DNA of 64,000 bases, taken from NCBI GenBank assembly GCA_963777315.1, contig CAVZQC010000004.1, forward strand, positions 192,001 through 256,000. Reading direction: 5' to 3'. The stretch's first letter is position 1. Each line of letters opens with the position of its first letter. Below, piece by piece: positions 2,456 to 31,429 of the stretch. The position numbers and the translations under genes are program-made. The DNA is from Vulcanimicrobiota bacterium (GTDB taxonomy: Bacteria; Vulcanimicrobiota; Vulcanimicrobiia; Vulcanimicrobiales; Vulcanimicrobiaceae). The notes under the pieces are model-generated. The model did not search any database. It saw only the letters and a program-made list of their open reading frames with translations, and was not told the origin of the DNA.

Positions 2456-2458
2456 AGT

Positions 2459-4469: not shown

Positions 4470-4482
4470 GGTTAGTATCTCC

Positions 4483-5838: not shown

Positions 5839-5857
5839 AGAAAATCGCTCCACTGTG

Positions 5858-7716: not shown

Positions 7717-7841
7717 TGCGCTAGCGCAGCCGCATCATCGCGCCAAATCCTTGCTTCCGGCGCAGTAGCGGGCTGCGAACGCATCGAGATTTTGCAAAAA
7801 GACTCATTTCAAAATCGTAGCTGATGTGCACTCGTTCGTAC

Positions 7842-7887
7842 ATCGTAGCATCGGCTTTCGTTGAGAATCATCCCTAGCAGGCGGGAT
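7842..7887 (-). promoter_or_regulatory. Island operator plus extended -10 for the leftward EPS operon
   Basis: ATCCCT-AGCAGG-CGGGAT (7870-7887). Minus-strand TGc-TACGAT at 7842-7847, gap 22 nt. Confidence 0.7.
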
Positions 7888-7931
7888 TTATCCGCCTGGT
7901 TTTGGCAGGGCTCTCTCCGGATGCGACGCCG

Positions 7932-7976
7932 ACCCCTAACGTTAGGGATGGGATGCCGCCGCCACCACGGTAGAAT
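7932..7976 (+). promoter_or_regulatory. Island operator plus -10 for the rightward GT operon
   Basis: ACCCCT-AACGTT-AGGGAT (7932-7949, containing the perfect palindrome CCCTAACGTTAGGG). TAGAAT at 7971-7976, gap 21 nt. Confidence 0.72.
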
Positions 7977-7985
7977 AGAAAGCGC

Positions 7986-10117: not shown

Positions 10118-10156
10118 TACGCCGGGATTGCGTTTCGTTCGTCCCGGGCGCACGAT
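10111..10156 (+). promoter_or_regulatory. Island operator plus -10 in front of a small gene (probably leaderless)
   Basis: ATCCTA-GTACGC-CGGGAT (10111-10128). CACGAT at 10151-10156, gap 22 nt. The ATG follows 6 nt later. Confidence 0.55.
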
Positions 10157-10162
10157 GCTCGC

Positions 10163-10477
10163 ATGACGTATGGGCCATCTGGGGCGGCTCTGCCTTCCTT
10201 ACGCACCGGAGGCAGTGTATTTTTGTTGGACGGAAACGGCCGCGTGTTCGCCTGCCCACAAGACGCCTGTGCCCAAGAGTACCCCAAGTTGCCTTTCGGA
10301 TTGCAGAGTCTGGTGGATCGACTCATCGTGCAGTCGCGTGACATCTTTACAGCGGGTGAAGCCGACTTTACCATCGATTTTCCGCTCGCCGTTCGTATTT
10401 TTTCACTAGAACCCAAGTCCAGCCCCACTATCGCCCTATACGTTCAGAGCGCGCGCCGCCGTTCCGACAATCCGTGA
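10163..10477 (+). CDS. Small protein resembling the N-terminal domain of the island LuxR regulators, without an HTH
   Basis: VFLLDGNGRV...KLPFGLQSLVDRL...LAVRIFSL...IALYVQ aligns by eye with LVVLDYDYRI...RLPTSVEAAVRAL...LMVRTSVL...IAASLE of ORF 31581. Confidence 0.6.
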   Translation: MTYGPSGAALPSLRTGGSVFLLDGNGRVFACPQDACAQEYPKLPFGLQSLVDRLIVQSRDIFTAGEADFTIDFPLAVRIFSLEPKSSPTIALYVQSARRRSDNP

Positions 10478-10520
10478 ATTGCGGACGCATACAACGTAAG
10501 GGTCAGGAGCGTTACCCGCG

Positions 10521-11837: not shown

Positions 11838-11840
11838 ATC

Positions 11841-13133
11841 ATGGACGTCTGCATTCCGCCACCCTTGCGCACTAGTAGCAGCGAGACGGCGGACCGCTAC
11901 GGTTCCGGCGCATTTCCTTGGACGGAAGTCGATCTGGAGACTCCCGAAGTGCGAGATCGCTGGATCGTGGAGGCACTATCCCTTTGGCAAGCTTCCCACG
12001 ATCGTTACCTCGACCAGCACGTGGAATGGATGCGATTTCTCGACCGGGAAGGCGAAGCCAAGATTCTTGTTTTCGAACTGCGGAACGAGAAAGGCTTGTG
12101 CGCGTACGCAGTCGTTCAGAGATGCTTGATGACCCAGATTTGGGAGGTCAGAGGGATCGCGCTTTGCAAGCGATCCGTCAAACGGCTGAGGATCGTCCGC
12201 AGCATTGTTGCCGATATCGAATTCGGAAGCGAGAATGCGGCCCGTGCACTAGCCGACCTGATCGTGCTTTTGCACGCCGCATTCCCCGCTTTGCCGATAT
12301 CTCTCGAAGGTCTTCGGCCCGAACCGGATCAGCGGATTGCGTGCAGTGACGAACGCGTGCTCTCTGTTTTCCTTTCGTTGAAACGGCGCCCGGATCAGTT
12401 GCATCATGCCGCCGACCTGCCGAAGCCTCCCCGCGGATACCTAGACCAGTTGAGCTCCAAGGATCGGCAAAACGTCAGGCGGCATGAGCGCAGGCTCCAA
12501 GAGCATTGTGACGGTGACGTCCGACTGGTGACCTACGAGGATGAAGCAGATGTGCAGACGTTTCTGGACGCCGCGCTTCCCATTGCAAGAATGTCGTATC
12601 AATATCGCGCGTATGGCGCCGGTCTGGCCGCGCAAAACGGCGTGCTCGAAAAGTATCGGGGCATGGCACGACGGGGCTGGTGGCGAGGCAATGTGCTGTA
12701 CTGTAAAGGCGAGCCCGTAGTATTCCTCTCAGCGTGCGAGATTGACGGGACATGTTTCGGAGACGAAATCGCATACGATCCCGCTTGGGCGGTATGGGGG
12801 GTAGGAATACATGCAATGGTTAGCCGCATTGAGGAACTGGTTAACCGGCCACAGCCGCCTGACCGTTTCGACTTCGGCCCGGGCGATTACGAGTACAAAA
12901 GACGATTGGTAAATTGCAGTTGGACGGAATGCTGCTACGATCTCGTTCCTAAAAACGTGCGAACGCTGGTGCCGTTCGTTGCCATTCATGCCGCTAGCCG
13001 CGGGACGGACGCCCTCCGTGCCGCCGTCAGAAAGTTGGGCATCCTCTCACGGAAAGAGTCTGTTCGTCGCAGCGGCCAATCAGCCAGTTCGAGCAAGCCA
13101 GGTTCGTCTGCGGATCCGGATTCTCGGCAGTAA
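11841..13133 (+). CDS. GNAT-family acyltransferase, CelD/BcsL (Acetyltransf_6)-like
   Basis: YLDQLSSKDRQNVRRHERRL, AYDPAWAVWGVG and FDFGPGDYEYKRRL. Confidence 0.82.
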   Translation: MDVCIPPPLRTSSSETADRYGSGAFPWTEVDLETPEVRDRWIVEALSLWQASHDRYLDQHVEWMRFLDREGEAKILVFELRNEKGLCAYAVVQRCLMTQIWEVRGIALCKRSVKRLRIVRSIVADIEFGSENAARALADLIVLLHAAFPALPISLEGLRPEPDQRIACSDERVLSVFLSLKRRPDQLHHAADLPKPPRGYLDQLSSKDRQNVRRHERRLQEHCDGDVRLVTYEDEADVQTFLDAALPIARMSYQYRAYGAGLAAQNGVLEKYRGMARRGWWRGNVLYCKGEPVVFLSACEIDGTCFGDEIAYDPAWAVWGVGIHAMVSRIEELVNRPQPPDRFDFGPGDYEYKRRLVNCSWTECCYDLVPKNVRTLVPFVAIHAASRGTDALRAAVRKLGILSRKESVRRSGQSASSSKPGSSADPDSRQ

Positions 13134-13151
13134 GCCGCGGCCGGAATACGC

Positions 13152-14712
13152 ATGCATCAAAGTGTTCCGGGGACTGCGGTGGATACTGCGGTAAGCACCA
13201 CACGGTGGCGCATCTGTTTTTGTGGCGTAGAGCCGGCATCGCCCTTTGGTGAGCTGCTCGCCGAAGCGGTTTCTGTGCCGGCCATGATTGTCGCTGACGG
13301 CGGCGTAAGTGCTGCGAGCGGCAAGTGGCGTGGGACCGTATTGGGAACCGCGCTGCAGTGGTGGGCCGGCGGCGCTGCTCCGAGTTCTGTAACGCCAAAC
13401 GAGGACGCTGCCGATGTTTTCATCGACTTCTTCGGCACGGAACCGGCCGGCACACCGCCGGGGCGTTTGTGGCGCCTTGTGGACGGCACGGGCGAACCGA
13501 TACTGAATCCGTTTTGCTTGGTGGAAACGTGCTGCCGAGCTCCGTTCGTCGCGTCTATTTTTCTCATCGAGCGTGGAACCGTCGACCTCGGTTGGACCGT
13601 GCTGGCGGAAGCGCATGTCGGGAATTGCCGCCGATACAGGGCGTTGCTCGACCGAGTGGCCCATATTGCAGCTCATCTGGTTGGCGCGGCTTTGCGCAAA
13701 ACCCGATCTGGCGGCGAAAAGACGTTCTGCGCAACGCCGAAGACTCGCCGGCGTTCCAGCGCGAGAATCGAAGCGCAACAGCTGAGAGCCCGCCTTGCTC
13801 GAACGGCGATAGTATTGCGCGAAACGGCATTGAACGAGTATTGGGCCATCGGCGTTCTTAATGCGCCCGCAGAGTCGTTGCTCCATTCACAAGCATTGCA
13901 TTCCGACCGCTGGATTGAATCGCCATCCCGCCGAACCTACTTTGCGGATCCGTTTCCGTGCCCTGGGCGATCGGACGTCATTTTCTGCGAGCGATATGAC
14001 TACCGCACCGCCCGCGGAGCATTGCGTAAGCTCACGCTCGACGATAAAACGGTAATCGGCGAAGAGCCGGTGGATCTGCGTATCAGTGATGGCCATTTGT
14101 CATACCCATTTCCATTCCCAGAGCAGGGGCGGGTATTTTTGCTTCCGGAAATGGGTGAATTTCGAAAGCTAGTCCTCTTTGAACTGGTTGCGCAGACTGA
14201 ACTGCGCGTTGTGTGTACCGTAGAGGAGGGTGCGCGCATCGCCGATGCGACCCTCTTCCGGCATGGCGAGTTCTATTGGATCGCTTACTGCGATCAGGAT
14301 TTCGGCACGCACGACAACCTGTGTCTACTATATTCGCGGCAGCTGAGAAGGCCCGTGGACGTCACACCCACGCAATCCGGTTAAGGTCGACGTCCGCTCT
14401 TCGCGGCCGGGAGGCACGCCGTTTTGGCTAAATGGAACGCTTCTTAGACCCGCCCAAGATTGCTCCGTCACCTACGGTGGTGCTTTGGTGCTGAACCGCG
14501 TGCGCGTGTGCAATCCCACTTCTTACGAAGAGGAGCCTATCGCCGTACTCAGCCCAGATCCGCGCGGCCGCTTCCCGCACGGTTTGCATACATTGTCGAT
14601 CGACGGAAGCCGAGTCGTATTCGACGGGAAGAGGCTCTTCCTCGATCCCGGCCGGTTTTGGAAGCGCGTACGGGCGCGCATCGCTCGCCATAGTGAAAGA
14701 GCAGTCAATACT
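13152..14712 (+). pseudogene. GINT1 N-terminal-like beta-propeller protein with a +1 frameshift at ~14346
   Basis: FADPF, HLSYPF and LLPE precede the break. After removing one A (CAG CTG [A] GAA GGC CCG TGG) the frame continues GPWTSHPRNPVKVDVRSSRPGG...RPAQDCSVTYGG...HGLHTL. Confidence 0.72.
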
Positions 14713-15840
14713 ATGCGCATTCTGATGTCCATTCACCACCGGCTGGATCCGGATGCTGGGGCCCCCGGTGTTACCTGGCACCTGGCGAACGCCCTCCGAA
14801 ATCGGGGTCACACTGTTGACGTCCTGTCGTTCGAGCGTGTGCCGGGGCCCGAGCAGCTGAAGACGTACATCTATCCATGGTTCGTCGCATGGTTTATCGC
14901 AAAATACCCCCATTACGATGTTCTGGACTTATCTTCGGGAGACGGTTGGGTTTTTAGCGTTCTGGCAAAGATATGGCCGCGCAAGGCATCCCCGGCCATG
15001 GTCGCCCGCAGCCACGGTCTCGAGCACGTCGCCCATGAGGTCCGCCTCAAGGCAAACAGGGCAGGCGCTTACAAATTATCGTGGAGGTATCGAATCTACC
15101 ACGGCGGATTTCGATTATGGGAATGCGGCATGTCGTTTTCTCGGGCGCGCGCAGCGCTGTTTCTGAACGACGTCGATCTGCGGTATGCCGTAGATCACCT
15201 TACCGTCGATGCAAACCGGGCGGTCCGCGTGAGAAACGGGATCGCACAGCACTTTATCGAGAACGCGAAGTCGCTGCTGGGCGACAAGCGGCCAATCGAG
15301 GGGCCGAGAAACATTGCCTTCATCGGACGCTACACGAACATGAAGGGCAGCCGCTATCTGCGCCCGGCGATGCAATCGATTTTGCGCAAGCATAAAGATG
15401 CCGGCTTCGGATTGTTTGGGACGATGGCGAGTGTGGACGAGGTGCTCGCCGACTATCCGAGCGAACTGCGCGACCGCATCTTCGTCGCGCCGGCCTATAA
15501 GAACGAAGATCTTCCGCGTCTACTCGCGCCATACCACATCTTGGCCTTTCCTTCGCTGTCTGAAGGCTTTCCGGCTGCGCCGCTGGAGGCGATGGCGTGC
15601 GGCATCGTCCCTGTAGTGGCCGCTTCACCGGGCCCCATGTCCTACATCGAAAACGGCCATAACGGCATCGTCGTGCCGGTCGGCGACGCGAACAGATTGG
15701 AAGAAGAAATCCACAATCTATTGGAGGATGTTTCGCGCTGGAGCGACTTACGCAAGGCCGGTTTGGCGACGGCGGTACAGTATTCGTGGGATAGTGTGGC
15801 CCGCGACATGGAAAAAATATACCAGTGCGCGGCCATCTAG
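14713..15840 (+). CDS. Glycosyltransferase family 4 (in frame with the upstream propeller C-terminus)
   Basis: MRILMSIHH at the ATG at 14713. FIGRYTNMKG and PSLSEGFPAAPLEAMACG. Confidence 0.88.
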   Translation: MRILMSIHHRLDPDAGAPGVTWHLANALRNRGHTVDVLSFERVPGPEQLKTYIYPWFVAWFIAKYPHYDVLDLSSGDGWVFSVLAKIWPRKASPAMVARSHGLEHVAHEVRLKANRAGAYKLSWRYRIYHGGFRLWECGMSFSRARAALFLNDVDLRYAVDHLTVDANRAVRVRNGIAQHFIENAKSLLGDKRPIEGPRNIAFIGRYTNMKGSRYLRPAMQSILRKHKDAGFGLFGTMASVDEVLADYPSELRDRIFVAPAYKNEDLPRLLAPYHILAFPSLSEGFPAAPLEAMACGIVPVVAASPGPMSYIENGHNGIVVPVGDANRLEEEIHNLLEDVSRWSDLRKAGLATAVQYSWDSVARDMEKIYQCAAI

Positions 15841-15862
15841 TTATGCACGGCCCGTCTATCGA

Positions 15863-17215
15863 TTACGCGGAGACGTGTTCCACTTCTGTCGTTGTGGCTT
15901 TCGCGGTAGCCGCGCCGGCCCGGCCGACGCCGCAATAGAGCAGCCCCGCGCGCACGACATCTGCCGGTTCGAAGACGTTCGCCCCATCGAACAATACGTC
16001 GCCTCGCATCGCTGCGCGGACGACTGTTAGCGAGATGTTCTTGTACTGCGGCCATGCCGTCATAACGGCCACGGCATCGGCACCGCGAACGGCTTCCTCG
16101 GCGTGCGCCTTACAACTGACGTGCGTTGAAAGAACCGAACGGCGGAAGTTGTCTGAGGCCAAGGGATCGTGCGCACGTATCGTGGCGCCTTCGCCGAGAA
16201 GTGCCTCGATGAAACGCAGTGAAGGGGCACCGCGAAGGTCGTCCGTGCCGGCCTTGAAACTCAGTCCCAGCACGCAGACGCAACGCCTCCGCAGTCCGCC
16301 GAGCGCGTGGGAAAGAGCCGCGATACCCTTCTCTATTCGCCGGTCGTTTATGCGCAACGTTGCGGCCATCATTGGTGCGTCGACTCCCGCGCGTGCCGCG
16401 CTGTCGGCGAGCCCGCGCAGATCTTTGGGAAGGCAAGGGCCGCCGAAGCCCAAACCGGGCTGCAGGTATCCCCGGCCGATTCTGGCGTCCATGCCTACGG
16501 CATCAAGCACGTTGAGCACGTCGACTTGCAGCGCATCGCACAGATCGGCGACTTCGTTCGCAAATGAGACGCGCAGCGCAAGGTAAAAGTTGGAAATCGA
16601 CTTGATCAGCTCGGCTGCCTGAATGTCCGTCACGATGATCGGAGCCTCTAGTGAGGCATACACGTCCTTCAGGATTGCCGCATCTTGCGCGCACCGCGCG
16701 CCGATGACGATGCGATCCGGCTCCAAAAAGTCCGCGACGGCGGATCCTTCGCGCAAAAACTCGGGGTTCGAGACCATCGTAACTCGGACGTCGACGCGCG
16801 CAGCGGATTGAACGATGGAAAGCAGTCGTTCGTTGGTGCCCGGAGGTACGGTCGACTTGCTCACGATGCAGACGTCCGACGTTAGCGTACGGCCGATTTC
16901 CTCCGCTGCGTGAAGCGCGTCCGCCAAATCAACTGTACCATCAAATTTCTGCGGCGTTCCGACGCAAAGAAAGATCACGCTTGCGTCTGCGAGCCCATCT
17001 TCGATGGAGCTGGAGAAGGTAAGCGCTCGAGAATCGACGGCTTCAGTCACCAATTCGGCCAGCCCCGGCTCAAAAAACGGCAGCCGGCCGGCGTGCAGCG
17101 TCTGCAAGTAGAACGGACTGCGTTCGATGCACGCCACGAGGTTACCCAGATGCGCCAAACAGGCTGCAGTGACTAGCCCGACGCGCCCTGCGCCTATGAC
17201 AGCGATTTTCTTCAA
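15863..17215 (-). CDS. ugd: UDP-glucose/GDP-mannose dehydrogenase family protein
   Basis: IAVIGAGRVG, LCVGTP, KSTVPPGT, SNPEFLREGSA, GFGGPCLPKD and GLSFKAGTDDLR. TTG start after a GAGGA RBS. Confidence 0.93.
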   Translation of the reverse strand: MKKIAVIGAGRVGLVTAACLAHLGNLVACIERSPFYLQTLHAGRLPFFEPGLAELVTEAVDSRALTFSSSIEDGLADASVIFLCVGTPQKFDGTVDLADALHAAEEIGRTLTSDVCIVSKSTVPPGTNERLLSIVQSAARVDVRVTMVSNPEFLREGSAVADFLEPDRIVIGARCAQDAAILKDVYASLEAPIIVTDIQAAELIKSISNFYLALRVSFANEVADLCDALQVDVLNVLDAVGMDARIGRGYLQPGLGFGGPCLPKDLRGLADSAARAGVDAPMMAATLRINDRRIEKGIAALSHALGGLRRRCVCVLGLSFKAGTDDLRGAPSLRFIEALLGEGATIRAHDPLASDNFRRSVLSTHVSCKAHAEEAVRGADAVAVMTAWPQYKNISLTVVRAAMRGDVLFDGANVFEPADVVRAGLLYCGVGRAGAATAKATTTEVEHVSA

Positions 17216-17264
17216 CGTTGTCCTCACAGCAGCCGGAATGAGCCTGGGCACCCTGGCAACCTCG

Positions 17265-17313
17265 ATTGTAATGCTCATCGGCGATGCGGCTAAATCCCTG
17301 ATTTCAGGGATTT
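17265..17313 (-). promoter_or_regulatory. Best-matching island operator plus -10 for ugd
   Basis: AAATCCCTGA-TT-TCAGGGATTT with perfect 10-bp arms (17292-17313). Minus-strand TACAAT at 17265-17270, 23 nt from the 18-bp core. Confidence 0.75.
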
Positions 17314-17396
17314 CTCCCCATTGCAGATATTGGTACGAACCTATATATGGTCGACGAGGGCCAAATACCGGCCCCCGCCGGCCGAGGGGTTTTACT

Positions 17397-18150
17397 ATGA
17401 TCGCGTACGGTAGCGAGCTTGCGGAGCGCTTTTCCAACCCGGTAATGCGCGCCGGAGTGCGCATGCTCGGAAGCTACGATCTCGGTGCACGCGTTCGCTT
17501 TGCCGCCGTGAACCGCGCACTGCGAGCATTACCGGCTCCTGCTCGCATACTCGACGTCGGATCCGGGCTCGGACTGCTCAGTTTCGCGATGCACCGCGTT
17601 TGGCCGAGCGCGACGATCGTGGGTACCGACATCGATCCAGGCTCGTTTACAACTGGCGCGGGAAATGGCCGGGCTGCAAAAAGTCGACGACCGCGTTACC
17701 TTTGCGCGAGTCGACGAGCAACAGGCATCCTCACAATACGACGTCGTAACTTGCGTCGACGTGCTCGAGCACGTGGAAGACGACGAAGCATTTGTCGCGG
17801 CCCTGTTCGCCGCGACGCGCCCCGGCGGCCGGCTCGTGCTGCACGTGCCGGCGGCTGCGAAAAAGCGGTATCTCGCGCAGTTCCCGGAGCAGCCGGACCA
17901 CGTTCGTCCGGGATATAGCGCGGACGCACTCGTTGCGTTGTTGCGCCGCGTAGGCTTCACGGAAGCGCGGGTCCGTTTTACGTTTGGCCCGCTGGGAGCG
18001 TTCGGGTGGGAAGGCTGCGAACTCGCGCGCCAGGGCCGGCTCACCGCTCGCGTACTGTTGCCGTTCTGGTATGCCTGCGCGATAGTGGATTCACTTCACG
18101 CACCTGCGCGGGGAAACGGTGTGCTTGCGGTTGCCCGAAGGCCCGCATGA
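17397..18150 (+). pseudogene. Class I SAM-dependent methyltransferase with a +1 frameshift at ~17640
   Basis: ILDVGSGLG...GTDIDP. Removing one G (CCA [G] GCT CGT TTA CAA) gives ARLQLAREMAG...DVVTCVDVLEHVEDD...RPGGRLVLHVP. Confidence 0.82.
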
Positions 18151-19488
18151 AACGCGAAAGCTCACGGCTTCGATCAGACTACTGACGCGTAACCGAAACG
18201 TTCCATGGACGGGCCAAAGCGTTGTGACCGAGATCGAACCTTTATCCGCGAATTTCGTCACGCTTATTGAGCGCACCGATGCAGGCAAGGTCAGCATGAA
18301 CATCTTGGTGACGGGCGCATAATCCGTACGTGTGGTCTGGTTCCAGAGCTGCGTTCCGAGCCAGGGGACCAGGATGTAGGTTCCATCGGATTTTTGGAAG
18401 AGCACCTGGTGCATGGCCCCGGTGGAATCGCCCGTTAACGAGTAAGCCAGCGGAGTTCGCGGAGAGCTTCCGCTATCGGCAAAATACTCCATCAATTGGC
18501 CGATCCGCCGCCAGACGAGCTTGGGTTTGAGGCGCAGATTGATAAGGCCGTATTGAGCGCACCGCCCGCTCGGGAATTCATCGAGGAGCTCGTACGAATA
18601 CACGCGCACGCCCTTCTCGATGTGCAGCAAAAGGTCTCGGGGAAAGTAACGTTCCTGCGTAAGCTGGTCCACCGAACCGTTCTTGCAAGCGGCGGTGGTA
18701 TCGGTGTTCCAGCCGTCCGATTCCGTTCCCACGAGCGGCTCGCTGCCCACGAACGCTTTGCAGCCTGCCTGGAAGTTGGGATAGTAGTTCGCCATGCTGA
18801 GCTCGGGCGTTTGCGTGCCGTTGACTTCATCGTGAACGGCACAGTAAGTTGTGTAGTTGCCGATACGTGGATAGCTCTCGTAGGATTCCGAACTGGCCAT
18901 AGCGGGACTGAAGATCGACACCGATTGTGAACGCAGATTCCAAATGAGCGGAACCCATTTCGCGACCACATAGCGCGGGCCCAACCCGGGCGCCGTTCCC
19001 AACCACGTGCAGTCTGCCGGCTTATCGTCGCACTCGTTGGGGCCCTCGTAGGCCTCAACCGCCGTAGATGCCAATCCCAACGCGCCGGAATAACCGCCTA
19101 GGCACGTGCCGTGGCATCCCGTAGTGTCTTTCGTCCAGCCCATCCATGGGTCCGTGATGATATCGAACCTAATGCCTGCGGAGGCCAATTGGTTAAAGCG
19201 TGTCTTCCAATTCCCCGTGCAGAAAGTGCTCGCTGTTCCCCAATTACAGAAACCGTCGCGGACGTGCTTGATCCGCGACTCGAGGAGCAGCGGCGACCAA
19301 GCACGGTATTCGAGATCATAGCGGGAGCCGGCAAAGTTCAGGTGGGTGTTTACGCCGATGGAGTCGTTGAAGGCTGCAGCGGCCACCGGCTTGACCATAG
19401 ATACTCGGACGCCATTACCGGCGTGCGCGAAACACGTCGTTGCGGAAAGAGCGACACACACGATGCCGATCGCTACGGTTCTTTTCAC
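18091..19488 (-). CDS. Secreted clan GH-A-like glycoside hydrolase, paralog 1 (cleavable signal peptide)
   Basis: Signal peptide VKRTVAIGIVCVALSATTCFAHA. NDSIGVNTH, IKHVRD, EGPNEC (putative acid/base) and GTESDGWNT (putative nucleophile). Confidence 0.7.
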   Translation of the reverse strand: MKRTVAIGIVCVALSATTCFAHAGNGVRVSMVKPVAAAAFNDSIGVNTHLNFAGSRYDLEYRAWSPLLLESRIKHVRDGFCNWGTASTFCTGNWKTRFNQLASAGIRFDIITDPWMGWTKDTTGCHGTCLGGYSGALGLASTAVEAYEGPNECDDKPADCTWLGTAPGLGPRYVVAKWVPLIWNLRSQSVSIFSPAMASSESYESYPRIGNYTTYCAVHDEVNGTQTPELSMANYYPNFQAGCKAFVGSEPLVGTESDGWNTDTTAACKNGSVDQLTQERYFPRDLLLHIEKGVRVYSYELLDEFPSGRCAQYGLINLRLKPKLVWRRIGQLMEYFADSGSSPRTPLAYSLTGDSTGAMHQVLFQKSDGTYILVPWLGTQLWNQTTRTDYAPVTKMFMLTLPASVRSISVTKFADKGSISVTTLWPVHGTFRLRVSSLIEAVSFRVSCGPSGNRKHTVSPRRCVK

Positions 19489-19534
19489 TGAGTTCTCGCT
19501 ATAGCAAATAGACGCCGCGACGGGCGACGAGTCC

Positions 19535-19582
19535 ATTGTATGCTCCGCGGGGACTGCGCAGAATCCCTGAACGTTGGGATTC
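19535..19582 (-). promoter_or_regulatory. Island operator plus -10 for GH paralog 1
   Basis: GAATCCC-TGAACGTT-GGGATTC (19561-19582). Minus-strand TACAAT at 19535-19540, gap 22 nt. Confidence 0.72.
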
Positions 19583-19658
19583 GTTCGCCGCCTTCCAGGC
19601 GACCGAACCAATCGCGCGAAACCCCTTTGGTTCGGACACACGTAGGTAACCGGCGAAG

Positions 19659-20501
19659 ATGACGATTGCGGTATGCGTTGTAACTCGAAACCGCCCGGCG
19701 ATGCTCGAGCGGTGTCTTTACGCTGTCCAGCACGCGCAACGCAGGCCGGACTTGCTGCTGGTATCGGATGATTCCAGTGACGAGAGCCGGAGCGCCGCGA
19801 CCAGAGCTGTGACTACCGAGCACGCAGTGGCGTATCTAGCCGGCCCACGTCGCGGCGTTTGCGCAAACCGCAATAACTGCCTGCACCTGGCTGCGAACAG
19901 CGACGTAATCGTGTTTTTGGACGACGACACGTTGCTCGAACCGGATTTTCTTGCCAACGTTGAACGTGCTTACAGCGATATGCGGCAGAGCAAAGCTTGC
20001 AAGACGATACTGGTCGGTGTGAGATATAATGAGCACGGCAAACAAGAACTGCCCTCGCGGCTCAATTTTCGCGGGTATTTCGAACCTGCCGAGAACCCGC
20101 ACGTCGCAGGAGCCAGTTACTCAGCGTACCCAACGGCCTTCTTTGCCGGCGAGAAGTGGGACGAAAATATCTACTATGGTTATGAGGACGCCGAGCTGAG
20201 CCTGCGCGCCCTTGAACGAGGGTACGAGCTCAAGTTTAGCCCGAACCTCAAGGCCCTTGATATTGGAAGAGAAGGCTCATTGGATATTTCACTTCAGTCG
20301 GAAAGAGTTCTTTTGGAAAGCGCTCGCCTCTATGTCGGGGTAAAGCGATACTTACGCATTAGCCGCGACCTGCCGCGTCTCGCCGGTTTTGTAATACTTT
20401 ACGTGACGCACCTCGCCGCACACCTATTGCGCACACGCGCATTGAGCCAATTTCCAGCGATCGTCAGGGCCGCGAAGCTCGAAACGTTGCTGAAGCAATA
20501 A
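19659..20501 (+). CDS. Glycosyltransferase family 2
   Basis: VVTRNRP, VSDDSSD, VFLDDD and YGYEDAELSLR. Confidence 0.92.
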   Translation: MTIAVCVVTRNRPAMLERCLYAVQHAQRRPDLLLVSDDSSDESRSAATRAVTTEHAVAYLAGPRRGVCANRNNCLHLAANSDVIVFLDDDTLLEPDFLANVERAYSDMRQSKACKTILVGVRYNEHGKQELPSRLNFRGYFEPAENPHVAGASYSAYPTAFFAGEKWDENIYYGYEDAELSLRALERGYELKFSPNLKALDIGREGSLDISLQSERVLLESARLYVGVKRYLRISRDLPRLAGFVILYVTHLAAHLLRTRALSQFPAIVRAAKLETLLKQ

Positions 20502-24153: not shown

Positions 24154-24283
24154 TCCGGAGCAAAGCCTTGTTCACAGGCGCAGCCGCCGCATTATCGGCG
24201 CACAGGTATATTCGGCAAACGCGCACGGGAATTAAGCGGCGCTCCGCGCCGGCAATGTAGACTTGTCAGTAAGGAAATTCGCT

Positions 24284-25087
24284 ATGGCATCGATTGCCCA
24301 CGACTTCAGCATGCGGCCGGAGACGGTTGCTATGTCCGCCGATGAGGGCTTCAGGTACCTCTTCCCGCCCGAGAAGGCGATCTTGGACGAGCTGGTCGGT
24401 AGTGGGCTGGGCGAAATGTCGATGCTCGACCTCGGTGTGGGCGCCGGAAGAACCACCGCCCATTTTCAGCCCCTCGTCCGCCGTTACGTTGGTTTGGATT
24501 ATTCGCCGCCGATGCTGGAGGCGTGTGCCCGGAGGTTTCCGGACGGGATTCCGAACGGGCGCTTCGTCTTAGGCGATGCGCGCGATCTCCAAGCATTTGA
24601 GCCTGCTTCTTTTGATTTCGTCCTGTTCAGCTACAACGGTCTGGATTCGGTTGACGTATCTGACCGCGAAGTCGCCCTGCGCGAGGTCAGGAAAGTTCTA
24701 AAAGATGACGGGCGGTTTTGCTTTTCGACTCACAACATCGACTGGCGCGGACTGATGTCGTGGTCCGGTGTTCGGAATATTGCGGCGCAAATACGAAGGC
24801 CGAAGGCGCTCATCCCCGCTTGCATCAGGCAATATACCATGCGGCGCGAGAATCGGACGTGGAGCCTAAAGCGGCGAATCAATGAGATCAGGAGCCGCGG
24901 ATCCGGCATTTTCTTTGAGGGTGCGGTGCACCAGCACTATACGACCCACGAGCATCAGCTTGCTCAGCTAAGGCGTTGCGGCTTCGATCGGATCCGGGCG
25001 TTCTCCGGAAACGGCATAGAAACGAATGCCGCCGCCGAACTGAACACCGGTTTCCAGATCTATTATTTGGCGCGGGCCGCCGACTGA
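24284..25087 (+). CDS. Class I SAM-dependent methyltransferase
   Basis: MLDLGVGAGRTT, YVGLDYSPPML, GDARDL and FDFVLFSYNGLD. Start uncertain (24263 TTG or 24284 ATG). Confidence 0.9.
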   Translation: MASIAHDFSMRPETVAMSADEGFRYLFPPEKAILDELVGSGLGEMSMLDLGVGAGRTTAHFQPLVRRYVGLDYSPPMLEACARRFPDGIPNGRFVLGDARDLQAFEPASFDFVLFSYNGLDSVDVSDREVALREVRKVLKDDGRFCFSTHNIDWRGLMSWSGVRNIAAQIRRPKALIPACIRQYTMRRENRTWSLKRRINEIRSRGSGIFFEGAVHQHYTTHEHQLAQLRRCGFDRIRAFSGNGIETNAAAELNTGFQIYYLARAAD

Positions 25088-25108: not shown

Positions 25109-25154
25109 ATCCCTATCTCTTGGGATGGACCGCCGGGTACAGGCTCGGTAAGCT
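25109..25154 (+). promoter_or_regulatory. Island operator plus -10 for the NRPS-P450-GNAT operon
   Basis: ATCCCT-ATCTCT-TGGGAT (25109-25126). TAAGCT at 25149-25154, gap 22 nt. Confidence 0.72.
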
Positions 25155-25295
25155 CAAGCCGTACGGACGTTCGGGCGTAACACGCATCTGGTCGATGGCA
25201 CGTATGTGCTCCTACCGGCTGCCGCTTCCTACGAACGAGTTCTCGTATTGCTGCCGTCGTCGTTTACGGCAGCCGGCTACAGTAAAGGGTGGAAT

Positions 25296-27125
25296 GTGGG
25301 CACGTTCGTTTTGCAAGGCAAACGATTGCCGGAGCAAAATATCTTCAAAATCGAAAACCGCTCGAATGCGGTTTCTCGTAGAATTTCGCGGTGCGCTGCG
25401 GGAGCGCCCGAACGTATTGCAGTCGCCGACGGAACCGCGCAGCTCACCTATCGTGAGCTCGAGCGCCGCTCCGACTACTTGGCCGCGCGCCTTCAAGAAG
25501 CGGGCGCGGCGCCGAATCGCTGCGTCGGAGTCTATGTAGAACGCTCGGCAGATTTTATCGTCGCCGCACTCGCCGTGCTAAAAAGCGGCGCTGCCTATGT
25601 TCCGCTCGACCTTTCCACGCCCCCAGAACGAGCGGCATTCATTTTAGAGGACGCCGGCGCTTTCGCGCTTATCACCCAGCCGGGCACGCCGAGTCCGGCT
25701 TCAGGCCGGCGGCATGTGATCGAGATGGACGATTGGAGCGCGACATCTCGCAGCGCCTTTGCAAAGGTTGAGCTCGACGCCGCAAACTTAGCGTACGTTA
25801 TCTACACATCGGGCTCGACGGGCAAACCCAAAGGCGTTGAGATAACCCATGGCAATCTTTCGAATTTGGTGAATTGGCATCAGTCCGAATTCCGCGTCAC
25901 GTCGTCAGACCGCGCGAGCCAGGTCGCGGGCCTTGGGTTCGATGCGTCGGTTTGGGAGATCTGGCCCTACCTGACGGCCGGTGCGAGCGTGTGCGTCGCG
26001 GACGAATTGACCCGCCGCTCGCCCGAGGCACTTCGTGACTGGATGGTCGCGGAGAAGATCACGATCGGTTTCGTGCCGACGATTGTAGCCGAGCAGCTGC
26101 TCCACATTGACTGGCCCGACGAGACGAGCCTTAGCATTCTGCTGACCGGGGGCGATACGTTGCACGCTCGCCCGGCACCAAAGTCGCCGTTCCGCGTGGT
26201 AAACAATTATGGCCCAACGGAATGCACGGTGGTGGCAACGTCAGGCGCCGTGTCTTCGCACGGCGACGATGGCGCACCGCCGTCCATCGGCCGTCCCATC
26301 GCCAATGCGACGGCGCTGATCCTTGACGAAGCATTGCGTCCGGTCGCGGCAGGCGAAGTGGGAGAACTGTGCATCGGCGGCGCGCTCGTTGGCCGGGGAT
26401 ATCGTAATCTGCCCGAACTGACGGCAAGCCGATTTGTGGACTATCTATCTGCGTCCGCGGATCCGCTGCGCATCTATCGAACCGGCGACCGCGCGCGATT
26501 GCTGCAAAACGGAGAAATCGAATTCCTCGGTCGTCTCGACGATCAGGTGAAGATTCGCGGGCACCGCATTGAGTTAGGAGAAATTGCCGCGCACCTGGAT
26601 CGTTGTCCCGGAATCGAATGGAGCGCCGTTTCGGTGAAGGATCTCGGCGCTCGAGGGCTTTCGCTTGTCGCTTACATCGTTTTAGTCGACAAGGCAACCC
26701 TTGCCGCCGCCGGCGTACGCCAATTTCTTGCAACCTATCTCCCGGATTACATGGTGCCCGAGTTTTTCGTGGTAATGTCGGAGCTGCCTGTGACGGCGAG
26801 CGGAAAGCTGGATAGATCTGCTCTTCCGGAGCCCTGCGTGGATAATCTCTTGCCGTATGATCTCGCGGCCGACGGTACGGCTAATGCGGGCGGCAGTGAA
26901 CTGCAATGCCAGATAGCGGCATTGGTCGCAACACTGTTGCGCCGGCCGGCGATTGACGTCGACGAAAATTTCTTCATGATAGGTGGCCATTCGATGCTCG
27001 GCGTGCAACTGATCGCCCAAATTCGCGATAAGTTCGGCGTCAAAGTCACGCTGCGGCAGCTGTTCACCGCACCGACGATCGCCGCCTTGTCGCAGGAAGT
27101 TGCAAGGCTGAAACAGCCGGCGTAA
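25296..27125 (+). CDS. Stand-alone NRPS adenylation-PCP didomain, predicted to activate leucine
   Basis: Core motifs LTYREL, AYVIYTSGSTGKPKG, FDASVWE, NNYGPTE, GELCIGG, YRTGD, GRLDDQVKIRGHRIELGEI and SGKLDR. PCP motif FFMIGGHS. No C or TE domain. Start uncertain (ORF open from 25206; GTG 25296 follows an RBS-like AAGGGTGGA). Confidence 0.95.
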   Translation: MGTFVLQGKRLPEQNIFKIENRSNAVSRRISRCAAGAPERIAVADGTAQLTYRELERRSDYLAARLQEAGAAPNRCVGVYVERSADFIVAALAVLKSGAAYVPLDLSTPPERAAFILEDAGAFALITQPGTPSPASGRRHVIEMDDWSATSRSAFAKVELDAANLAYVIYTSGSTGKPKGVEITHGNLSNLVNWHQSEFRVTSSDRASQVAGLGFDASVWEIWPYLTAGASVCVADELTRRSPEALRDWMVAEKITIGFVPTIVAEQLLHIDWPDETSLSILLTGGDTLHARPAPKSPFRVVNNYGPTECTVVATSGAVSSHGDDGAPPSIGRPIANATALILDEALRPVAAGEVGELCIGGALVGRGYRNLPELTASRFVDYLSASADPLRIYRTGDRARLLQNGEIEFLGRLDDQVKIRGHRIELGEIAAHLDRCPGIEWSAVSVKDLGARGLSLVAYIVLVDKATLAAAGVRQFLATYLPDYMVPEFFVVMSELPVTASGKLDRSALPEPCVDNLLPYDLAADGTANAGGSELQCQIAALVATLLRRPAIDVDENFFMIGGHSMLGVQLIAQIRDKFGVKVTLRQLFTAPTIAALSQEVARLKQPA

Positions 27126-27138
27126 TGCAATCGTACCG

Positions 27139-28377
27139 ATGATCGATAGCGCGGCTCAAGTCCCCTTAAGTCTCTACCACTTACTCGATCCGCAGGTGCT
27201 GGCGAACCCGTATCCGCTCTATCGCCGCCTTCGTACCGAAGATCCCGTTCATTGGGATCCCTACCTCCATGCTTGGATCGTCACGCGATATCAGGACGTC
27301 ATTACGGTCCTGACTCGGTTTTCCGCCGATCGCACGCCTTCCCCGGAATATTTCGAGCGGCTGGGTGCCCCCGAAGTGAGCCCGATAGCGACGGTGATGG
27401 TCAAGCAGATGCTGTTTATGGATGCGCCGGCACACACGCGCCTGCGCACGCTTGCGGCGCCCGCCTTCATGCCGGCGCGCGTACACGTGCTGCGCGATCA
27501 CGTCCGGCAGATCGCGAGCAATCTCATCGACGACATCGTGGCACGCGGCTCCGGCAAAATGGACCTTTTGGCCGACTTCGCCGAGCCGTTTCCCGCGATC
27601 GTGACGGCCGAGTTGCTGGGCGTGCCCGTGGAAGATCACGTCCGGCTGAAAGACTGGTCGGGGACGTTCGCCGGAATGCTTGGAAACTTTCAGCACAATC
27701 CCGAACGGCTCGGGGACGTGCTGCAGGCTGCCCAAAACTTGACCGCATACTTTCAAAACGCGATCCTCGAACAACGCAAGAACCCAAGGCCGGGATTGGT
27801 CGACTCGCTGATGACCAGCGAAGTCGACGGCGATCGCCTGACCGACGAAGAGGTCGTTGCAAACTGCATCGTCACGATGGTCGGCGGCCAGGAAACGACG
27901 ACGAATCTGATCGGCAACGGCATGCTCACGCTGTTGCGTAATCCGCAAGCCTTGGCGCGCCTTCGCAGCGAGAACGAGATCGTGCCCGCGGCGGTCGAAG
28001 AACTGCTGCGCTATGAAAGCCCCAGCCAGCACACCGCCCGTTTAGCGCCGCGTGACGTAGTGCTCGGCGGAAAGCAGATTCGCAAAAGGGACGCGGTGAT
28101 CGCGGTGATGGCCGCGGGCAACCGCGATCCGGAGCGATTCCCGCAGCCCGACCGCCTCGACTTCGATCGATCGGACAATCGACACCTCGCGTTCGGATGG
28201 GCGGCACATTTCTGTTTCGGCGCGCCGTTGGCTCGGCTCGAGGGACATATTGCGTTTGAAACGCTCTTGCAGCGATTTCCGGTGCTGCGGCTCACAAACG
28301 AGAACCTTGCGTGGCGTGAAAACCTCGGACTGCGCGGTCTGAGATCGCTGCCGCTTTCGTACGAAGCCAAGCCATGA
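27139..28377 (+). CDS. Cytochrome P450
   Basis: DAPAHTRLR, I-helix VGGQETT, the EELLR (ExxR) motif and heme motif HLAFGWAAHFCFG. Confidence 0.97.
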   Translation: MIDSAAQVPLSLYHLLDPQVLANPYPLYRRLRTEDPVHWDPYLHAWIVTRYQDVITVLTRFSADRTPSPEYFERLGAPEVSPIATVMVKQMLFMDAPAHTRLRTLAAPAFMPARVHVLRDHVRQIASNLIDDIVARGSGKMDLLADFAEPFPAIVTAELLGVPVEDHVRLKDWSGTFAGMLGNFQHNPERLGDVLQAAQNLTAYFQNAILEQRKNPRPGLVDSLMTSEVDGDRLTDEEVVANCIVTMVGGQETTTNLIGNGMLTLLRNPQALARLRSENEIVPAAVEELLRYESPSQHTARLAPRDVVLGGKQIRKRDAVIAVMAAGNRDPERFPQPDRLDFDRSDNRHLAFGWAAHFCFGAPLARLEGHIAFETLLQRFPVLRLTNENLAWRENLGLRGLRSLPLSYEAKP

Positions 28378-29519
28378 GCTTTCAGGTCAAAAATATGCCG
28401 CCGGCCGGGGCTGCGGCTCTTGCGCCGCCCAAGCTTCGGCCGGCCCGTTTCGACGATTACGAAGGCATCCGCAGGTTGGTCTTGGAGCACTCTACCGAAT
28501 TCGCGGCCGCCGAAGACTGGCGCCATTACTGGGCCGACAATCCCGTCTACCAACGTCTCGGCAGTGGGACGCCCATCGGCTGGGTGTTGCACACGCAAGC
28601 CGGCGGCATCGTCGGCACGCTCGGCAGCATCCCGTCACTGTATACGTTCCGCGGTCAGGACCTGATCGCGGCGACGGGGCAGTCGTGGTATGTCGCGGCT
28701 CCATACCGTGGGCTGGCGCTCGAGCTGATGGCCGAGTATTTCGATCAGCCCGTCGATTTGTTTATCGGCTCCACGGCGGGTTCGATGGCGAGTGCGACGT
28801 GCAGCGAGCTCTATGCGCGGATCCCATTGGGTCAGTGGGACACGAAGTCATATTGCGTAACGCGATATCGCTCGTTTGCCGCGCGAGCGCTGGACAAGCT
28901 GCACGTGCCGCTCGCGGGTTTACTCTCGCATCCCGCGGGTGCCGGACTTTGGCTCAAGGATGCTATCCGCAGGAAACCGGTCTGTGCCGTCCCACGTTCC
29001 TTCGCCATCGACGCCATGGATCGGTTCGACGCGCGTTTCGATGATTTCTGGGGTGAGCTCGTGCGGCAAAATCCGGAGAAATTGCTTGCAGAGCGGTCTC
29101 TTGCGGCGCTTGCGTGGCATTTTGGCCCAGCCATTCGCAATGGTCTGTTATGGATTTTTACCGCATCGAAAAATAAACGGATGCGAGGTTACTGCATCGT
29201 GCGGCGGCGAGAATATTCGACGCCCGGGGTTCGGCGCATGCGCCTAGTGGATTATCAGAGCATCGAACCGGAAGTGGACCTTTTACCGTGCCTGCTTGAT
29301 GCGGCGGTGCGGCGCTGCACCGCAGAAGATATTTATGTCCTAGAAAACATCGGCGTGGGCATGCCCAAAATGCGCGCTTTTGACGACTATGCCCCGTACC
29401 GCGTACGGTCGGATAGCTGGCCCTTCTTTTACCGCGCGGCCGATCCGGCGCTCCACGCAGAGCTGCTTCAGCCCCGTTTTTGGGACCCGTCGTCCTTCGA
29501 TGGTGATGCGAGTTTGTGA
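28374..29519 (+). CDS. Uncharacterised protein with a probable tandem GNAT fold, paralog A
   Basis: LRPARFDDYEGI at the start and WYVAAPYRGLA (motif A-like). Translationally coupled to the P450 (ATGA). Confidence 0.6.
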   Translation: MSFQVKNMPPAGAAALAPPKLRPARFDDYEGIRRLVLEHSTEFAAAEDWRHYWADNPVYQRLGSGTPIGWVLHTQAGGIVGTLGSIPSLYTFRGQDLIAATGQSWYVAAPYRGLALELMAEYFDQPVDLFIGSTAGSMASATCSELYARIPLGQWDTKSYCVTRYRSFAARALDKLHVPLAGLLSHPAGAGLWLKDAIRRKPVCAVPRSFAIDAMDRFDARFDDFWGELVRQNPEKLLAERSLAALAWHFGPAIRNGLLWIFTASKNKRMRGYCIVRRREYSTPGVRRMRLVDYQSIEPEVDLLPCLLDAAVRRCTAEDIYVLENIGVGMPKMRAFDDYAPYRVRSDSWPFFYRAADPALHAELLQPRFWDPSSFDGDASL

Positions 29520-30712
29520 ACCAATTCACAGGCACGACGCCGGATATCGGAATAGGATCGGCCCAGCCGCAAGCACATCGCGCTGCTAGCCTTCGGCCCG
29601 CGACTCTGGACGATTACGAAGACATTCGGCAACTGGGCTTAAGCTATTCTTTGGACGTTCCATCGGTGGAGGACTGGCGAAGTCTTTGGCGCGACAATCC
29701 GCTGCGGAACCGCTCGGGAAACGATTTCCCGATCGGCTGGGTGCTTGAAACGCAGGCCGGTGAGATGGTCGGCACGATGGGGACGGTTCGATCGCTGTAC
29801 AAATTTCGCGGGGACGATCTCATATCGGCAGCTTCACGAGCGTGGTTCGTAAAAGCTCCCTACCGCGGATTTGCTCTGCGGCTGATGGACGAGTATTTAA
29901 ATCAACCCGGGGTTGACCTATTCATCAACAACGCCGTCAGCGTTCCGGCGCTTGAGTCGTTCAGCCAATTCTGCGAACGGATACCGCTGGGTGAATGGGA
30001 CAGCATGTCCTATGGGGTGACCGGCCATCGCGCGTTTGCGCAAAAAGCTTTGGAGAGGGCGCGCGTCCCCGTCAGCGGATCGCTGGCGTATCCCGTGGGC
30101 GCCGCGCTGTGTTTGAAAGATGCTGCCCGCAATACGCCGCTTCCCAAGAGCGCTCGTGCGTTTACCATCGAAGTCACGGACCGTTTCGATTCCCGGTTTG
30201 ACGCGTTTTGGAACGAATTGCTTGCGCAAAAGCCGGAAAAGCTCTTGGCCGAAAGAAGCAGCCGCGCCCTTTCGTGGCATTTCGGTGCACCGATGCGCAG
30301 AGGGAATCTGTGGGTTCTTACGGCGTCCAAAAACGACCGCCTGCGCGCGTATTGCACCTTGACGGCACAAGATCACGCGTTCAGGCTTCCGGCTCTGCCC
30401 CATGGTGATACGCAAGGCATCAGCGCTATGCGTTTGGTCGACTACCAAAGCATCGAACCGGAAGCAGATGCGCTGCCGGCGCTGCTCGCGGCGGCACTTG
30501 CGCGATGTGCCCAGGAAGGCTTTTGCATCCTTGAAAATCTCGGATGCGGCGTGCCGAAGATGCGCGCTCTTGACGACCGGCTTCCCTACCGCAAAACGCT
30601 TTCGAACTGGAAATTTTTTTACCGGGCAGCCGATGCGCGCCTCGACGCCGAACTACGTGAGCCCAGGTTCTGGGATCCGTCCGCGTACGACGGGGATGCG
30701 AGTTTCGAATAA
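29516..30712 (+). CDS. Uncharacterised protein with a probable tandem GNAT fold, paralog B
   Basis: LRPATLDDYEDI and WFVKAPYRGFA. Collinear with paralog A through FWDPSxYDGDAS. Coupled by a GTGA overlap. Confidence 0.6.
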   Translation: MNQFTGTTPDIGIGSAQPQAHRAASLRPATLDDYEDIRQLGLSYSLDVPSVEDWRSLWRDNPLRNRSGNDFPIGWVLETQAGEMVGTMGTVRSLYKFRGDDLISAASRAWFVKAPYRGFALRLMDEYLNQPGVDLFINNAVSVPALESFSQFCERIPLGEWDSMSYGVTGHRAFAQKALERARVPVSGSLAYPVGAALCLKDAARNTPLPKSARAFTIEVTDRFDSRFDAFWNELLAQKPEKLLAERSSRALSWHFGAPMRRGNLWVLTASKNDRLRAYCTLTAQDHAFRLPALPHGDTQGISAMRLVDYQSIEPEADALPALLAAALARCAQEGFCILENLGCGVPKMRALDDRLPYRKTLSNWKFFYRAADARLDAELREPRFWDPSAYDGDASFE

Positions 30713-31429
30713 CGTGCCGGCGCTCAGCCACTGAACGGGCAGTGAACCCGGGGCGTGTTGGGAGCGGATGGCCGTGGCGGCGATATGGTCTTTTGATGGA
30801 TGATGCAGCGTAAAATGCCAGCCGTCGATGGATGCCGGCTCACCATTTCCATCGAGCCCGATGGTGAATCGCTCCTCCCCGCTGCCCAGTCCGCGACCCA
30901 TGCCTTTAAGGCACGCTTCCTTCAACACCCACAGTTTGAAGAATCGCACGTTGCGCTCAGGCTGAGGTAAAACCGTCAGGCTCGCGCGCTCCGGCTCGGA
31001 AAGAAAATTGCGAGCGATAAGGTCGATATCTGCGGTGCGTGAGATCTTCTCGACGTCCACGCCAACCTCGCCCGCGCGGCTCAATAGGCAAACCACCATA
31101 CCTTCCGTATGCGCTATATTGAACTGCAGAGACTTGAAAGCTGAAGGTTCGGCGATCTGCGGTTTGCCGAACTCGTTTTCAGCGAAACGCCATTCGGCCG
31201 GATCTACCGCGGCGTACTCTGAGAGAGACAATCGGCCTAACGCGCGGCCGGTGAGATACCTATGCCGCAGCTCCGGCGCGCGTAATGCTGCGTAATGCGA
31301 TTGCTCTGTTTTTGAAAGCCAGGACGAACAGTGTTCGTGCAGCGCAGGCGGGGAGATGTGATCCGGGTTAACATGCCATGCATGCGCATCCAGCAGCAAC
31401 TTGTCCAAATATAAGCGCTTGGCCGGCAT
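30653..31429 (-). CDS. Sfp-type 4'-phosphopantetheinyl transferase
   Basis: FGKP, LQFNIAHTEG, VGVDVE and FFKLWVLKEACLKGMGRGL. Confidence 0.93.
   Translation of the reverse strand: MPAKRLYLDKLLLDAHAWHVNPDHISPPALHEHCSSWLSKTEQSHYAALRAPELRHRYLTGRALGRLSLSEYAAVDPAEWRFAENEFGKPQIAEPSAFKSLQFNIAHTEGMVVCLLSRAGEVGVDVEKISRTADIDLIARNFLSEPERASLTVLPQPERNVRFFKLWVLKEACLKGMGRGLGSGEERFTIGLDGNGEPASIDGWHFTLHHPSKDHIAATAIRSQHAPGSLPVQWLSAGTLFETRIPVVRGRIPEPGLT

Follow-up and report, generated by a model that had tools for sequence, protein, structure and literature searches.

The presence of a nonribosomal peptide synthetase (NRPS) loading module beside the genes of a bacterial exopolysaccharide (EPS) raises the question of what such a module makes and where its product goes. 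The case considered here is a 64,000-nucleotide stretch of the Vulcanimicrobiota bacterium assembly GCA_963777315.1 (contig CAVZQC010000004.1, positions 192,001 to 256,000; hereafter the window), in which an EPS island is followed by a cassette encoding an adenylation and carrier (A-T) didomain, a cytochrome P450, two paralogous proteins and a phosphopantetheinyl transferase (PPTase). A first-pass annotation of this DNA had proposed a pathway for (hydroxy)leucyl decoration of polysaccharide, with the two paralogs, described as GNAT-like, as transferases. The reading that we favor, with a probability of about 0.5, is that, in the cytoplasm, the GNATs transfer an oxidised leucyl group from the carrier to an EPS-pathway sugar.

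All five ORFs (open reading frames) of the cassette are intact at the locus. The stand-alone A-T didomain lies on the forward strand at 25296..27125; its longest ORF spans 25206-27125, and GTG 25296 is the likely start, because the resulting 609 amino acids match the closest homologs in length and AAAGGGTGG directly precedes this codon. Pfam matched AMP-binding, AMP-binding_C and PP-binding in this protein and nothing else, and the carrier serine is found in GGHSML. On the same strand follow the P450 (27139..28377), paralog 1 (28374..29519) and paralog 2 (29516..30712), with 4-nt stop/start overlaps at the P450-paralog 1 and paralog 1-paralog 2 junctions, and a convergent Sfp/HetI-type PPTase (30653..31429, reverse strand; Pfam and NCBIfam) closes the cassette. 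The coupled arrangement described by the first-pass annotation was confirmed by these ORFs, Pfam matches and overlaps, as was its reading of the binding pocket. Pocket residues placed by motif read D-A-W-F-L-G-N-V-V-K, and McyB (PDB 8HLK), the top PDB match to the pocket region (E 1e-44), aligned with an identical set of nine pocket residues. McyB module 1 and the surfactin modules that bear this code take leucine. As also claimed earlier, no condensation (C) or thioesterase (TE) domain was found by Pfam among the ORFs scanned at the locus, to which the TE search was confined. Additionally, a Condensation domain was found neither in the genome itself (0/1; G000, 90% complete) nor in module-bearing relatives (0/5; 91-97% complete).

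The two paralogs, which share 55% identity, would provide the exit from this module. Neither matched Pfam or NCBIfam at E<=0.01, the FemAB-related family TIGR03019 included, so that the label "GNAT-like" rests on a predicted fold. Paralog 2 was modelled by AlphaFold from a 50-row alignment (pLDDT 91), and the model aligned with NMT (Z 19.7, root-mean-square deviation 4.6 over 318 residues) and MAB_4324 (Z 19.3, 3.5 over 288 residues), with a Foldseek E of 2e-11, Eis proteins at Z ~17.7 and Fem ligases lower, at Z ~12.7. These matches predict a tandem GNAT acyltransferase fold for paralog 2 and, by inference from it, for paralog 1; the earlier claim is thus upheld by the model and receives no support from the family databases. 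A profile search of PDB sequences with the GNAT returned nothing significant, homology to SbzI included, and all clusters from an ESM Atlas look-up were of the "hypothetical protein" kind, with Acetyltransf_1 members making up 13-26% of some. A crude scan detected no strongly hydrophobic segment in either paralog, and both are therefore likely cytoplasmic. The family, uncatalogued so far, comprised 518 representatives at E<=1e-30. Two other GNATs of this genome were tried as relatives and rejected, the island's CelD-type GNAT (11841-13133; hhalign probability 0.5%) and the GNAT of the genome's second EPS locus (4.9%).

Members of this family have lost the canonical coenzyme A (CoA) P-loop. Once rows under 330-340 amino acids were left out of the alignment, the N-terminal lobe lacked Q/R-x-x-G-x-G/A in 216/223 aligned members, and by a second pattern the canonical loop was absent from 195 of the 198 rows that this pattern could read; in its place stands V-x-x-x-Y-R-G-F-A-L, shorter than the CoA loop by two residues. 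According to the available portion of PMC11685415, an altered P-loop typifies carrier-dependent GNATs, SbzI and FeeM among them. The domain is also fused to other modules, behind C-A-T-TE in five proteins (P0134, P0142, L062, L064 and L069), behind a ketosynthase and acyl carrier protein (KS-ACP) in a near-identical pair (P0198 and L072) and behind a polysaccharide deacetylase in one (P0149). Altogether, transfer from carrier to glycan by the GNATs is supported by the loss of the P-loop, by fusions to carrier domains and to a deacetylase, and by the fact that no C domain was found in six genomes.

A GNAT-led scan of GTDB, in which 75 loci were kept from the best 80 of 121 confirmed stretches, identified A-T and P450 genes within 10 kb at 52 loci in six phyla, referred to below as module loci. 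By phylum, these were 9/20 in Eremiobacterota, 15/18 in Planctomycetota, 14/21 in Acidobacteriota, 9/11 in Actinomycetota, 4/4 in Pseudomonadota and 1/1 in Chloroflexota; two of the Pseudomonadota records (L004 and L010) group with Eremiobacterota on the tree described below and may be mislabelled. The leucine code was conserved in 40/42 complete pockets of the genome loci and in 26/28 of those in metagenome loci. An A domain without the catalytic lysine (L029:11175-12941, GEPD replacing GKLD) was observed despite an intact operon. PPTase genes were present at 20/52 module loci. Twin GNATs, listed as a feature of the module by the first-pass annotation, do occur in the window and are not general: one full-length copy was found at 37 module loci, two at 11, three at two and none at the remaining two owing to frameshifts or truncation, which rules out the pair as an essential feature. 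By the labels of its homologs, the bacterium belongs to Eremiobacterota/Vulcanimicrobiota, and within this phylum (301 genomes) the cassette is patchy, with a strong GNAT match in 22 genomes (25 including three weak matches), the P450 in 20, both in 19 and both adjacent in 18. At ~6 kb, the cassette is also carried by two records not titled as metagenome-assembled genomes, Roseomonas sp. KE2513 (L048) and Actinomycetospora sp. TBRC 11914 (L051). In plasmid records, the GNAT gave no match and the P450 only two, at 39-41%.

These patterns bear on the possibility that the GNATs are EPS acyltransferases with another donor, such as an acyl-CoA or a fatty-acid ACP, the product of the A-T and P450 pair being released by hydrolysis or by a different enzyme, and the two sets of genes travelling together only because they share an EPS locus. 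Of the 75 GNAT loci, 19 have neither A-T nor P450, several of them being short; in ten genomes of GNAT loci lacking the pair, the P450 was found elsewhere in seven and not found in three. Some genomes in which no A-T or no P450 was detected have a solo GNAT beside EPS genes (L020, L024 and L025), and in one genome (G307) A-T and P450 sit among CE4 and GT4 genes with the GNAT on a separate contig. A similar EPS-type locus carries the full cassette in L041 and L093 and the GNAT alone in those three loci, pointing to a loss of the A-T, P450 and PPTase genes. Set against a different donor are the near-fixed adjacency of P450 and GNAT (the GNAT directly follows in 52/55 loci having a P450), their translational coupling, the lost CoA P-loop, the fusions behind carrier domains and the failure to find C domains in six genomes, and we regard it as the least probable of the alternatives considered here.

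The A-T and P450 pair was also identified in P450-led loci with no GNAT nearby, where the same leucine A-T and P450 are followed by C-A-T-TE modules with varied second pockets (L078, L081, L082, L094, L095 and L096). Since C-A-T-TE takes the place downstream in these GNAT-less loci, the GNAT and the C domain seem to serve as alternative exits, and the A-T and P450 core would make an oxidised-leucine unit accepted by either. Several further architectures were noted. A natural P450-C-A-T-TE fusion of 1830 amino acids (L094:5035-10524, reverse strand) adjoins a leucine A-T, a priming transferase and Wzy, and a stand-alone C domain lies between P450 and GNAT in L157, L163 and L168. In Acidobacteriota (L060-L066, L069, L070, L171, L178 and L180), the cassette lies within a larger conserved cluster of sulfotransferase, Wzy, GT4, CE4, A-T(Leu), P450, GNAT and C-A-T-TE, continued by a second GNAT, sulfotransferase, luciferase-like monooxygenase, a further A domain, formyltransferase and ACP; the C-A-T-TE of L060 has a Cys-type TE motif, GLCVNG. 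Tentatively, and with somewhat less confidence than for the window, we propose a widespread system of soil bacteria in which leucine A-T and P450 yield a hydroxyleucyl unit and the new tandem-GNAT family acts as a terminal transferase from carrier to polysaccharide, interchangeable with C domains, fused to NRPS and polyketide synthase (PKS) modules, and hanging whole dipeptides or polyketide acyl groups on the EPS of Acidobacteriota.

Whether the module belongs with polysaccharide genes, as the first-pass annotation had supposed from this one locus, was assessed at module loci of at least 19 kb (n=40), counting genes within 10 kb with EPS profiles built from the same loci that they score. At least one EPS gene was present in 30 of these loci, at least two in 24, and a Wzx, Wzy, Wzz, Wza or priming gene in 18, compared with 18%, 8.5% and 4.1%, respectively, in 2703 overlapping 21-kb windows of the bacterium's own genome. 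Due to the circularity of the profiles, 75 metagenome loci were used as a held-out set; there, the same three classes were found at 6, 5 and 4 of 11 module loci with a minimum length of 18 kb, and at 9, 8 and 5 of 24 with a minimum of 9 kb. In two loci (L012 and L013) the cassette is situated in the middle of an EPS operon, in the order priming transferase, A-T, P450, GNAT, PPTase, Wza, Wzz, Wzx and Wzy. From samples of Acidobacteriota and Planctomycetota, another eight members of the family were taken regardless of their neighbours; none has an A-T or P450 nearby, six have an adjacent CE4 deacetylase, the seventh has one near and the eighth has a GT4. On a quick tree of 91 GNATs, in which short loci were scored "none" for EPS, the "core EPS" label occurs on both sides of the midpoint and requires 19 changes; being so scattered, the link is neither a single inherited block nor fixed. 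The window paralogs 1 and 2 fall in separate starred groups of mostly Eremiobacterota rows. The linkage to EPS genes is strong and is not obligatory: the enrichment stands (30/40 against 18%), and a quarter of the long loci (10/40) show no EPS gene.

In the window, the cassette shares a palindrome with the island. An 18-bp operator, ATCCC-N8-GGGAT, precedes the cassette at 25109..25126, and further copies were counted at 7870..7949 (two, exact at 7870 and with one mismatch at 7932, where the priming-transferase and GT4 operons diverge), at 10111..10128 (one mismatch, ~400 bp upstream of wzx), at 17294..17311 (exact, at the divergent ugd/methyltransferase junction) and at 19563..19580 (exact, upstream of the GT2 gene at 19659). 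Four of the six exact copies of the 2.83-Mb genome fall in this island (7870, 17294, 19563 and 25109), which bears out the earlier observation that the operator is shared with glycosyltransferase operons. With up to one mismatch, the window has 11 sites at spacer 8 versus 0-4 at each of spacers 4-7 and 9-13; over the whole genome, spacer 8 shows no excess (66 sites versus 49-81 at other spacers), and the motif is therefore a local one. The corresponding promoters of a same-genus genome (G199) and of a different genus (L089/L007) carry the operator as well, with an identical site before A-T between diverged flanks. Because the operator is both shared and conserved, we infer that the cassette is co-regulated with the EPS promoters. 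The motif was first spotted by eye in intergenic k-mer output and then counted; the k-mer search of intergenic regions had itself missed it, and it was not among the top matches of a general repeat finder. A scan for sigma-70 promoters and terminators performed at chance level. Elsewhere, three copies of ATCCC-N8-GGGAT were seen around the cassette in a different EPS locus (L112), and one upstream of A-T in L106. Three LuxR-type genes flank the island (1-444, 654-1247 and 31581-32165, the last on the forward strand and assigned by Pfam), and their products are candidate binders of the operator. Upstream of the operator lies an S-adenosylmethionine-dependent methyltransferase gene (24263..25087, forward strand; Pfam and neighbour counts). 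It is present, as the first-pass annotation had it, and is adjacent to the conserved module, outside it; with an occurrence at 1/75 related loci and in the same-genus genome, it was ruled out as a core part.

The island itself (1244..20501; Pfam) is of the Wzx/Wzy type and comprises four GT4 and two GT2 glycosyltransferases, Wzy, Wzz, a priming transferase, Wzx, Ugd and the CelD-type GNAT. On its reverse strand and beyond it, three paralogous, apparently secreted proteins with no Pfam match are encoded (18091-19641, 20603-22090 and 22405-24153), whose Atlas look-alikes are GH5, GH39 and GH42 (score 0.96) and which are possibly EPS-processing hydrolases; a Pro/Thr-rich repeat of 12 nt lies in one of them (23648-23923). 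A methyltransferase gene split across two frames (17127-18150) and a GINT1-like gene that seems shortened relative to its relatives (13152-14480) may reflect assembly errors. The DegT genes and a VimE-like gene of this genome are located in a second EPS locus ~320 kb away (G000:C4 ~522-570 kb). Two further carrier cassettes were observed there (L181:8479-12091, reverse strand; L182:16424-18928, forward strand), one with FkbH, an ACP and the VimE-like gene, the other with an ACP, a class-II-synthetase-like amino acid:[ACP] ligase and a GNAT whose P-loop looks canonical, with DegT aminotransferases and Wzy close by; they display the same logic built from unrelated parts.

The P450 retains the heme cysteine (FGWAAHFCFG), ExxR and I-helix threonine, all of which are kept across its top 120 homologs. 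BioI and PksS head its 58 PDB matches at E<=1e-55, with BioI (PDB 3EJB) as the closest solved relative (E 1e-79). BioI works on a carrier-bound substrate, cleaving ACP-bound acyl chains; it is thus alike in being the best solved sequence match and in using a tethered substrate, and differs in its partner, a fatty-acid ACP instead of the aminoacyl A-T encoded here. The P450 group is very large (7918/8000 candidates at E<=1e-100), many of its members are auto-labelled BioI, and the "pimeloyl-ACP synthase" labels on these homologs are likely over-annotation. Stand-alone A-T and P450 pairs are mostly beta-hydroxylases. This precedent, and an Acidobacteriota C domain with HHxxxDG that receives the product, as would fit an intact aminoacyl thioester, make it clearly unlikely that the transfer logic is right with another group or acceptor, be it gamma/delta oxidation, N-oxidation or BioI-like C-C cleavage by the P450, or a glycolipid or protein-linking sugar as in the Wbp/Vim pathway. 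Such an outcome would accord with BioI as top PDB match, with the three glycoside-hydrolase-like secreted paralogs of the island and with VimA, which builds a protein-to-lipopolysaccharide linker sugar, as stated in the part of PMC7468200 available.

Several observations weigh against delivery of oxidised leucine to an EPS sugar. The EPS profiles come from the same loci, the background from one genome, and related genomes are not independent. EPS genes are missing from ten of the 40 long module loci; when 104 selected ORFs out of the 209 unlabelled ones of EPS-free loci were scanned with Pfam, no glycosyltransferase, Wzx or Wzy was found, and in 5/5 genomes of EPS-free loci tested the priming transferases were encoded on a different contig or at a distance of over 500 kb. 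These loci fit a small molecule, whether diffusible or bound to the cell, that is switched on together with EPS and not attached to the polymer; an N-acylated hydroxyleucine or an amide between oxidised leucine and a small amine would be examples. C-A-T-TE dipeptide modules of Acidobacteriota, whose second pockets vary, are fed by the same A-T and P450 pair, and the carrier-dependent GNAT SbzI has a small-molecule acceptor, as given in the accessible text of PMC11685415. On the other hand, the cassette occurs in several unrelated types of EPS cluster and in mid-operon (L012 and L013), the GNAT family is fused to or adjoins polysaccharide deacetylases, and no conserved exporter or small-molecule partner gene was found among the recurring neighbours; a small-molecule product thus appears doubtful, if worth serious consideration.

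Against transfer of oxidised leucine to EPS, it must also be counted that a CE4 gene is near just 13/52 module loci and that neither a CE4 deacetylase nor a DegT or other sugar aminotransferase was found among the scanned ORFs of the island, so that a free amine acceptor is not evident here. The top solved matches of the P450, BioI and PksS, are neither of them known amino-acid beta-hydroxylases. One GNAT (G489) retains the short P-loop with no carrier nearby, and a short loop is therefore no proof that this carrier is used; likewise, the C-A-T-TE-GNAT fusions indicate that a GNAT can coexist with other release domains. Finally, in five GNAT-bearing genomes searched with this query, a leucine A-T was not found in four (G125, G132, G154 and G574), and the fifth gave only NRPS matches at 40-41%.

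With these reservations, delivery of an oxidised leucyl group to an EPS sugar can be set out as a pathway. The PPTase would prime the carrier, and the A-T didomain is predicted to load L-leucine to give Leu-S-PCP (peptidyl carrier protein). The P450 would likely hydroxylate the tethered leucine, with beta-hydroxylation as the default by analogy with other pairs. The GNATs, in place of a C domain, would then acylate a cytoplasmic acceptor before flipping by Wzx, the probable target being an amino group of a nucleotide sugar or of the undecaprenyl-diphosphate-linked repeat unit, and the two paralogs may serve two sites or work as a pair. The first-pass annotation had itself named four findings that would speak against leucyl decoration. 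Three of them were partly looked at, and an acyltransferase fold in the model, a leucine-type pocket and an association with EPS loci were found instead of their opposites, which leaves the proposed pathway partly supported.

If this pathway exists, it would be an undescribed way of decorating the bacterial surface and would link natural-product assembly lines with exopolysaccharide tailoring, which are usually separate fields. It would also add a new family of NRPS/PKS terminal transferases and assign a role to the very large group of P450s. In soil phyla from which few members are in culture, the slime would then be expected to bear hydrophobic or hydroxylated amino-acid groups, which could influence adhesion, phage binding and EPS turnover.

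Among known systems, NikP1/NikQ-type cassettes likewise combine a free-standing A-T, an adjacent P450 and the lack of a C domain; the window differs in having no type II thioesterase at the locus, no C domain found in the genome, a tandem-GNAT exit and an EPS setting. NovH/NovI and BpsD/OxyD are reportedly also stand-alone A-T and P450 building-block cassettes. A hydroxyleucine P450, PlyR, has been proposed by analogy with such pairs, as set out in the portion of PMC3943440 available. The altemicidin enzymes SbzL/SbzG/SbzI resemble the cassette in uniting an adenylation enzyme, a carrier and a GNAT with altered P-loop that acylates an amine; their donor is sulfamoylacetyl, their acceptor a small dinucleotide, and the accessible sections of PMC11685415 name no P450 step, whereas the GNATs here have a tandem fold. 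Three features of a carrier-dependent GNAT are seen here, namely the predicted GNAT fold, a replaced P-loop and a cognate carrier in the cluster or fused. For the VimE/VimA system of Porphyromonas and Tannerella, it has been proposed that an amine is freed by a CE4 enzyme, and the addition of Ser or Gly to a surface-glycan sugar depends on VimA (PMC7468200, as far as its text was available). The likeness lies in a putative N-acyltransferase that adds an amino acid to a surface-glycan sugar after CE4, and the pairing of CE4 and GNAT recurs in the present family; the same portion of PMC7468200 mentions neither a carrier nor an A domain or P450, Ser or Gly is the amino acid added, and the island of the window lacks a CE4 among its scanned ORFs.

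The cassette does not correspond to a canonical NRPS, no Condensation domain having been found in its genome or in five relatives. The Dlt system delivers carrier-bound D-alanine to a surface polymer without a C domain through a transferase of the MBOAT type, and in butirosin biosynthesis an amino acid is hydroxylated on a carrier and then delivered to an amino sugar, again without a C domain. The present A domain scored 254 bits against TIGR01734 (DltA), for which the cut-off is 560, and no MBOAT was found among the scanned ORFs. The butirosin enzymes BtrO and BtrH are named in the available part of PMC2922099, and lincosamide synthetase (LmbC/LmbN-CP) delivers a carrier-bound amino acid to an amino sugar without a C domain, according to the accessible text of PMC4351081. 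The transferase folds of these three systems, which are MBOAT for Dlt, mycothiol-related for lincosamide and papain-like for butirosin, differ from the tandem GNAT. A search of the full-text literature, whose coverage excludes most subscription papers and supplements, found no description of this gene combination, and one may thus exist. Altogether, each part has a precedent, the A-T and P450 pair in building-block cassettes, the carrier-dependent GNAT in SbzI, the aminoacylated glycan sugar in VimA and the condensation of a carrier-bound amino acid with an amino sugar in lincosamide and butirosin, and it is their combination that appears to be new.

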